DNA of 1,556 bases, taken from NCBI GenBank assembly GCA_000004985.1, contig GG739383.1. One strand, written 5' to 3'. The notes beneath the pieces were generated by a model. That model saw nothing but the letters and a program-made list of their open reading frames with translations, was not told where the DNA came from and did no database searches. The DNA is from Naegleria gruberi (taxonomy: Eukaryota). A program made the translations under genes and the position numbers. Each line of letters opens with the position of its first letter. Positions within the stretch are counted from its first letter, which is position 1. This document shows positions 55 to 207 of this stretch, piece after piece.

Positions 55-207
55 GAAAACTAGCACTCTAACGCAAGTACCTCCGAAGAGGTCCAGTATG
101 TGTTCACCAATTTGATGAATCGCGAGGCTAACGAATCTCATTACATATCGCTTTTTGCCGCGGGCTTCATCGATGCATAAGCCGTGTGCTCCATTGCACA
201 GAGTTTG
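55..207 (-). rRNA. 5.8S-like rRNA segment (or 5.8S-homologous 5' end of LSU), divergent
   Basis: The minus strand contains the 5.8S hallmark GCATCGATGAAG (plus 165-176), followed by GCGATATGTAATGAGATTCG..GATTCATC..GGTGAACACATACTGG. This parallels canonical GCGATACGTAATGTGAATTGCAGAATTCAGTGAATCATCGAATCTTTGAACGCACATTG. Upstream, CAAACTCTGTGCAATGGAGCACACGG parallels AAACTTTCAACAACGGATCTCTTGG. Length ~153 nt fits 5.8S. The sequence downstream of GCATCGATGAAG diverges from consensus, where AACGCAGCGAAATGCGATA has become CCCGCGGCAAAAAGCGATA. Confidence 0.55.

Follow-up and report, generated by a model that had tools for sequence, protein, structure and literature searches.

The 18S, 5.8S and 28S rRNA genes of Naegleria are each present as a single copy on a circular element (CERE) of 14–16 kb that occurs in thousands of copies per cell, with one rDNA cistron per CERE and no chromosomal rDNA (PMC11008152). 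Known CERE sizes are 14,007 bp in N. gruberi EGB, 15,786 bp in N. fowleri LEE and 16,164 bp in N. pringsheimi. The 5.8S/ITS region has served as the standard species barcode for the genus since the late 1990s (references including PMC4618853). ITS1 measures 32–35 bp in most isolates (42 bp in one), and the stretch annotated as '5.8S' measures 172–174 bp (PMC4618853 Table 3). Pelandakis et al. 2000 published two ITS primers specific for the genus Naegleria, given in PMC4618853 as GAACCTGCGTAGGGATCATTT (forward) and TTTCTTTTCCTCCCCTTATTA (reverse). Twin-ribozyme introns are known in Naegleria, Didymium and Allovahlkampfia (PMC1464144, PMC4167309). The pairing scheme of a canonical 5.8S rRNA is known from yeast, where the molecule contacts the 25S rRNA in helices 2, 4 and 10 (H2, H4 and H10) only, and the stretch between H4 and H10 folds internally (PMC3763536).

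Here we analyse a 1,556-nt stretch of DNA (the window), in which the segment 55–207 had been predicted to be a 5.8S-like sequence whose divergence implied either co-divergent LSU partner strands or a non-functional copy. We are highly confident that window 61–205, read on the minus strand, encodes the functional 5.8S rRNA in a normal 18S–ITS1–5.8S–ITS2–28S cistron, and that its source is a Naegleria-type heterolobosean amoeba. The segment is ordinary: both this kind of sequence and the lineage are already known.

Identification of the 5.8S rRNA gene

An Rfam scan of both strands of the window returned two matches, an SSU rRNA and a 5.8S rRNA, each on the minus strand. The 5.8S match (window 61..205, minus) spans the full RF00002 model (positions 1–154) and reaches 84.0 bits, twice the gathering score of 42, with an E-value of 5.5e-21 (cmscan). 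By the Rfam model boundaries the gene is 145 nt long. Both the assignment of the segment as 5.8S-like and the covariance-model check proposed with it are borne out by this full-length match.

The gene is far from the eukaryotic consensus. Identity to RF00002 amounts to 93 of 154 columns (60%), and among the 79 highly conserved (upper-case) columns, 60 are matched and 19 are changed. Despite this, the conserved box GCAUCGAUGAAG is matched exactly, at window 165..176 (minus), corresponding to nt 30–41 of the 5.8S. No locus that we fetched departs from this sequence, the box being partly contained in the pattern used to fetch them. In RNA sense, the minus strand reads GCATCGATGAAG at window 165–176 and GATTCATCAAATTGGTGAACACATACTGGACC at 90–121, and the canonical strings AACGCAGC and GAATCATCGAATCTTTGAACGCACATTGCGCCC were not found in the window. 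The original prediction of a retained box within an otherwise divergent molecule therefore describes this gene well.

The box also contributes to a degenerate search pattern, GCATCGATGAAGCCCGCNNNNNNNNGCGATA, which combines it with the CC substitution of the window 5.8S. The pattern matched 2 contigs in a bacterial and archaeal genome collection and 17 in a metagenome collection; a scan of viral contigs with the same pattern gave 0 matches. Look-ups of exact proteins, made with three spurious open reading frames of the window, also returned no match. One metagenome contig, L013 (VFQN01005947.1, 14,434 bp), is 100% identical to the window over its 1556 nt by BLAST, with window position 1 at L013 11549 on the same strand. 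In 16 other loci the BLAST match extends along the window in full or for the most part, at 91.6–98.9% identity, and the remaining two, L003 and L007, match it only over the 5.8S end.

Organization of the cistron

The window holds the 3' two thirds of an 18S rRNA gene at 239..1556 (minus; RF01960, 952.8 bits, model positions 619–1831), the 5' end of which lies beyond the window edge. The SSU and 5.8S matches are separated by an ITS1 of 33 nt (206..238, minus) that forms a single hairpin. On the other side of the 5.8S, window 1..60 (minus) contains the first 60 nt of ITS2. We considered reading window 1–30 as the 5' end of the 28S behind a very short ITS2, and rejected it: on L013 an ITS2 of 147 nt (11462–11608) separates the 5.8S from the 28S, and the relatives likewise place the 28S beyond this segment.

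Contig L013 extends this arrangement to a complete cistron. It carries the 18S (minus; Rfam), the 5.8S at 11609..11753 (minus; the same RF00002 match) and a complete 28S at 8006..11461 (minus; 2364.5 bits, model positions 1–3401). The 18S ends at the position equivalent to window 239 and is followed by ITS1, 5.8S, ITS2 and 28S, which places the 5.8S between the SSU and LSU genes of one cistron. The rest of the roughly 14.4-kb contig is mostly non-ribosomal. One cistron in a contig of this size and composition resembles the Naegleria CERE; the termini of L013 do not overlap, and the contig, which may be incomplete, stops within an intron of the 18S gene.

That intron is a twin-ribozyme group I intron located exactly at UCUGGU|GCCAGCA (S516), upstream of the 18S part in the window (L013 about 13158–14434, minus). 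It contains a GIR1 branching ribozyme at 14046..14242 (minus; 202.7 bits) and an open reading frame of 254 amino acids at 13315..14079 with a His-Cys box (SHLCGNGGCARPGHL...THCH) of the homing-endonuclease type. Near-identical relatives differ in whether they have the intron: it is present in L002, L004, L011, L012, L013 and L018 and absent from L001, L005, L006, L008–L010 and L014–L017.

The S516 site lies in the 530-loop region of the 18S. The 530 loop of most eukaryotes reads GGAGGGCAAGUCUGGUGCCAGCAGCCGCGGUAAU. We compared this region in L013 (13136–13156, minus) and at the equivalent site of 15 other loci. Wherever the site is present and uninterrupted by the intron, it reads GGAGGAAAAGUCUGGU|GCCAGCACCCGCGGUAAU; where the intron is present, it separates the two halves, L013 having the 3' half only. 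At first sight, these changes appear uncompensated in the 505–507/524–526 pseudoknot. The original prediction had compared the divergence of the 5.8S to that of the SSU 530 loop and 5' domain, both of which lie outside the window, where the 18S part starts at model position 619. This non-standard loop is probably what was meant.

Two of the contigs, L001 (DYOB01000204.1) and L002 (JARLHW010000166.1), are deposited in bacterial metagenome-assembled genomes (MAGs) as Borreliella garinii and Desulfosporosinus sp., respectively. Both carry 18S, 5.8S and 28S sequences of Naegleria-type eukaryotic rDNA, and L002 has a GIR1 intron. Their presence in bacterial MAGs is binning contamination. In a third contig, L003 (Ga0255294_1002440, positions 2448–2574), the 5.8S is matched only from nt 19 on, and unrelated sequence replaces ITS1 and the 18S. 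This arrangement may reflect chimeric assembly or a rearrangement of the copy.

Probable assignment to Naegleria

Both genus-specific primers match exactly, with 0 mismatches, the forward one at window 239–259 (minus) and the reverse one at L013 11399–11419. The ITS1 of 33 nt falls within the range of most Naegleria isolates. The 145-nt 5.8S together with about 30 conserved nt beyond its 3' end adds up to about 175, which fits the '5.8S' annotated in this genus. Along with the optional S516 intron and the single cistron on a largely non-ribosomal contig, these features are the ones shared with the Naegleria CERE. They suggest that the genus is very likely Naegleria, an assignment made from markers.

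The same functional 5.8S could in principle come from another heterolobosean, such as Willaertia or another vahlkampfiid, or from a different deep-branching eukaryote. Twin-ribozyme introns with GIR1 also occur in Allovahlkampfia and Didymium, and the primer pair was used in studies that, by their titles, report other vahlkampfiids. Against such a source stand the exact matches to both genus-specific primers, the length of ITS1, and the conserved stretch past the Rfam 3' end, which is consistent with the Naegleria '5.8S' of about 175 bp. We consider it very unlikely that the sequence originates outside Naegleria. An origin in a nucleomorph, a microsporidian or another lineage with reduced rRNA, which the tiny ITS1 had brought to mind, was dropped given the Naegleria markers.

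Folding within the 5.8S rRNA

In the RF00002 structure line, positions 40–136 form intramolecular helices, and positions 1–39 and 137–154 are unpaired within the molecule. The corresponding intramolecular core of the window 5.8S, taken from the structure line of the cmscan alignment, comprises nt 40–128 (window 78..166, minus) and contains the stretches that had been flagged as divergent. The original prediction had these stretches, namely the AACGCAGC region and the 3' half (GAAUCAUCGAAUCUUUGAACGCA...), pairing with the LSU. They belong instead to helices formed within the 5.8S itself, as seen in the RF00002 structure and in yeast (PMC3763536).

A table of the model pairs reveals that the consensus intramolecular helices of RF00002 can form in the window 5.8S. 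Four pairs are deleted and 21 retained, of which 17 are standard. The non-standard ones are 47/54 (G.A), 72/79 (U.C), 106/114 (A.G) and 40/102 (A.G), the last of which is likewise non-standard in the RF00002 consensus. Model pairs 42/100 and 43/99 are a-u and a-u in the consensus and C-G and C-G here, each compensated on both sides; in the numbering of the window 5.8S, this is the C42C43/G98G99 stem (model 42–43/99–100). The conversion of these two pairs explains why GAAGAAC became GAAGCCC together with the change of CUUUGAAC to UUGGUGAAC. Further differences from the canonical molecule are UGAACACA in place of UGAACGCA and a shortened 3' G+C hairpin, which has lost 4 of 9 pairs: it consists of 5 bp capped by a UUCG loop, as opposed to the canonical 9 bp. 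The flagged substitutions in the internal part of the molecule are largely self-compensated within the 5.8S.

Pairing with the 28S rRNA

To define the intermolecular pairing, the 5' region of the L013 28S was aligned to the RF02543 consensus, and the 5.8S and 28S nt 1–460 were aligned across all loci. Pairs were counted in an alignment of 6 distinct haplotypes plus the Rfam consensus. Both-side differences, relative to the Rfam consensus and/or among relatives, occur in 12 pairs of H2, H4 and H10.

The 5.8S strand of H2 (nt 4–13, UCUGUGCAAU; window 193..202, minus) pairs with 28S nt 411–420 (AUUGCAUAGA). The equivalent consensus strands are CUuUuAgCgAU in the 5.8S and AuuGuUaAgAg in the 28S. 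The helix has 10 pairs, 4 of which are changed on both sides, and 97.1% of its cells are paired. Relative to the consensus, A8-U is replaced by U8-A, u7-a by G7.U and g9.u by G9-C. Among relatives, G9-C becomes U9-A in L007 and U4-A becomes C4-G in L009.

H4 is formed by 5.8S nt 22–33 (CGGCUUAUGCAU; window 173..184, minus) and 28S nt 332–344 (AUGCAUAAG-A-CCG). It comprises 12 pairs (98.8% of cells paired, 2 pairs changed on both sides) and is two pairs longer than the canonical helix, owing to an extra U in the 28S. At 5.8S nt 27–28, four haplotypes matched to the 28S are found among close relatives. The L013 and L018 groups combine UA in the 5.8S with UA in the 28S; L005, L006, L014 and L015 combine UG with CA; L019 combines CA with UG; and L001, L007 and L009 combine CG with CG. 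L002 also has CG at nt 27–28 of the 5.8S, and lies outside this comparison with respect to the 28S partner.

The 3' tail of the 5.8S (nt 129–145, CUUGCGUUAGAGUGCUA; window 61..77, minus) pairs with the first 16 nt of the 28S (UGGCCUCUAAUGUGAG) in H10. This helix has 16 pairs and one bulge, with 99.1% of cells paired and 6 pairs changed on both sides relative to the consensus, including a3-U to G3-C and a8-U to U8-A. Within the clade, the only changes are interchanges of G.U, A-U and G-C pairs. L001, in which the 3' half of the 5.8S, ITS2 and the start of the 28S are masked as N, was left out of the H10 counts.

Taking the intra- and intermolecular pairs together (59 in total), 16 are changed on both sides, compared with 3.9 ± 1.5 in column shuffles, of which 0 of 500 reached 16. 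Sliding the 3' partners by 1–3 columns lowered pairing from 92% to 30–39%, a difference that is inflated by the helix definitions being derived partly from the same sequence and the consensus. The covariation within the clade is free of this bias, but represents few independent evolutionary events. Two further analyses are independent of the chosen helix definitions. When duplexes were scanned along the whole 3456-nt 28S, the homologous site ranked top for 5.8S nt 1–20, 18–39 and 125–145, albeit with small margins of 0.4–1.8 kcal/mol. RNAfold, applied to the 5.8S tail, ITS2 and the 28S 5' end, predicted H10 de novo (z = -6.15) and added a GUUU/AAAC extension from the ends of ITS2.

On sequence grounds, H2, H4 and H10 are all intact, and strands that have drifted are matched by changes in their partners. 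The compensatory-change check that had been proposed for the adjacent LSU, carried out here with the 28S of L013 and its relatives, finds the helices restored. The predicted co-divergence of LSU partners holds for H2, H4 and H10, with 97–99% of cells paired and covariation in each; it accounts for only part of the flagged divergence, much of which is compensated inside the 5.8S instead.

These observations suggest that the rRNA would be assembled like any other 5.8S. Helices 2 and 4 would arise from pairing of the 5' part of the 5.8S with the 28S, the middle would fold on itself, and the 3' tail would join the 5' end of the 28S in helix 10. Together, the three helices and the folded middle would form domain I of the large subunit. 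The paired regions are far from the eukaryotic consensus, but each has drifted jointly with its partner, whether that partner belongs to the 5.8S itself or to the 28S. In this way the structure is preserved.

A pseudogene or decaying rDNA copy, in which the 5.8S gathers uncompensated substitutions, might account for the 60% consensus identity, the 19 changed columns among the 79 highly conserved ones and the shortened 3' hairpin, yet it is extremely unlikely for four reasons. Compensating changes are found both within the 5.8S and in the 28S. Across many independent samples, all 19 loci share at least 93.7% identity in the 5.8S, and 5 of them 100%. The cistron on L013 is complete with a high-scoring 28S, and the literature knows one cistron per Naegleria CERE and no chromosomal copies (PMC11008152). 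The non-functional copy offered as one option by the original prediction is contradicted by this compensation, by the complete cistron and by the near-identical copies in many metagenomes. Unlike the identity, context, pairing and markers of the functional Naegleria-type gene, its expression and the assembly of its product into ribosomes are what we infer.

The internal transcribed spacers

The ITS1 hairpin (window 206–238, minus) has the form GGUAAAAAGGU-GAAA-ACCUUUUUUACC. It is kept in relatives that have other arms: ..AAAAAAAAGC-GAAA-GCUUUUUUAA.. in L009, and GAUUUGG-GUAAAA-CCAAAUU in the L004 group.

The 5.8S is flanked by two occurrences of a motif, CUGGUAAAA(A)GGUG, one in ITS1 (window 225–238, minus) and one in ITS2 (window 30–42, minus). 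The motif is conserved in most relatives, absent from the ITS2 of L007 and degenerate in the L004 group. We considered a stem between ITS1 and ITS2, built on the common GGUAAAAGGU motif and serving 5.8S processing. The relatives give no clear covariation for such a stem, and we leave the motif as a repeat.

Close relatives show almost no differences in the first ~60 nt of ITS2, and the remaining ITS2 ranges from 126 to 472 nt in length. Conservation of the ~30 nt that follow the Rfam 3' end of the 5.8S extends to most relatives; L004, L011, L012 and L018 differ, and L007 lacks the stretch. The sequence of L002 ends 111 nt after the 5.8S. Window 1–60 also carries the motif CUGGUAAAAGGUG, which is found in ITS1 as well. 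This segment could conceivably be a lineage-specific processing element common to both spacers, or be kept in a 3'-extended mature 5.8S of ~175 nt, although we regard either role as unlikely compared with ordinary, conserved folding of ITS2. The 3' end of the 5.8S lies at 145 nt according to Rfam and the geometry of H10, as opposed to about 175 nt in the Naegleria annotation.

Discussion

Compared with the canonical 5.8S rRNA, as represented by RF00002 and the yeast 5.8S/25S complex, the window 5.8S has the same architecture, the same three helices at homologous sites of the 28S, and the GCAUCGAUGAAG box. The segment looks unusual only because the rRNA of the Naegleria lineage has drifted. The minus strand of the window can be annotated as the 3' part of a Naegleria-type 18S, ITS1, the 5.8S and the 5' part of ITS2. 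As a by-product, two public 'bacterial' MAG contigs, L001 and L002, are recognized as amoeba rDNA. We conclude that a 5.8S rRNA with 60% identity to the consensus can be fully functional, and that the right test for a divergent 5.8S is covariation with its partner strands, not similarity to the textbook sequence.
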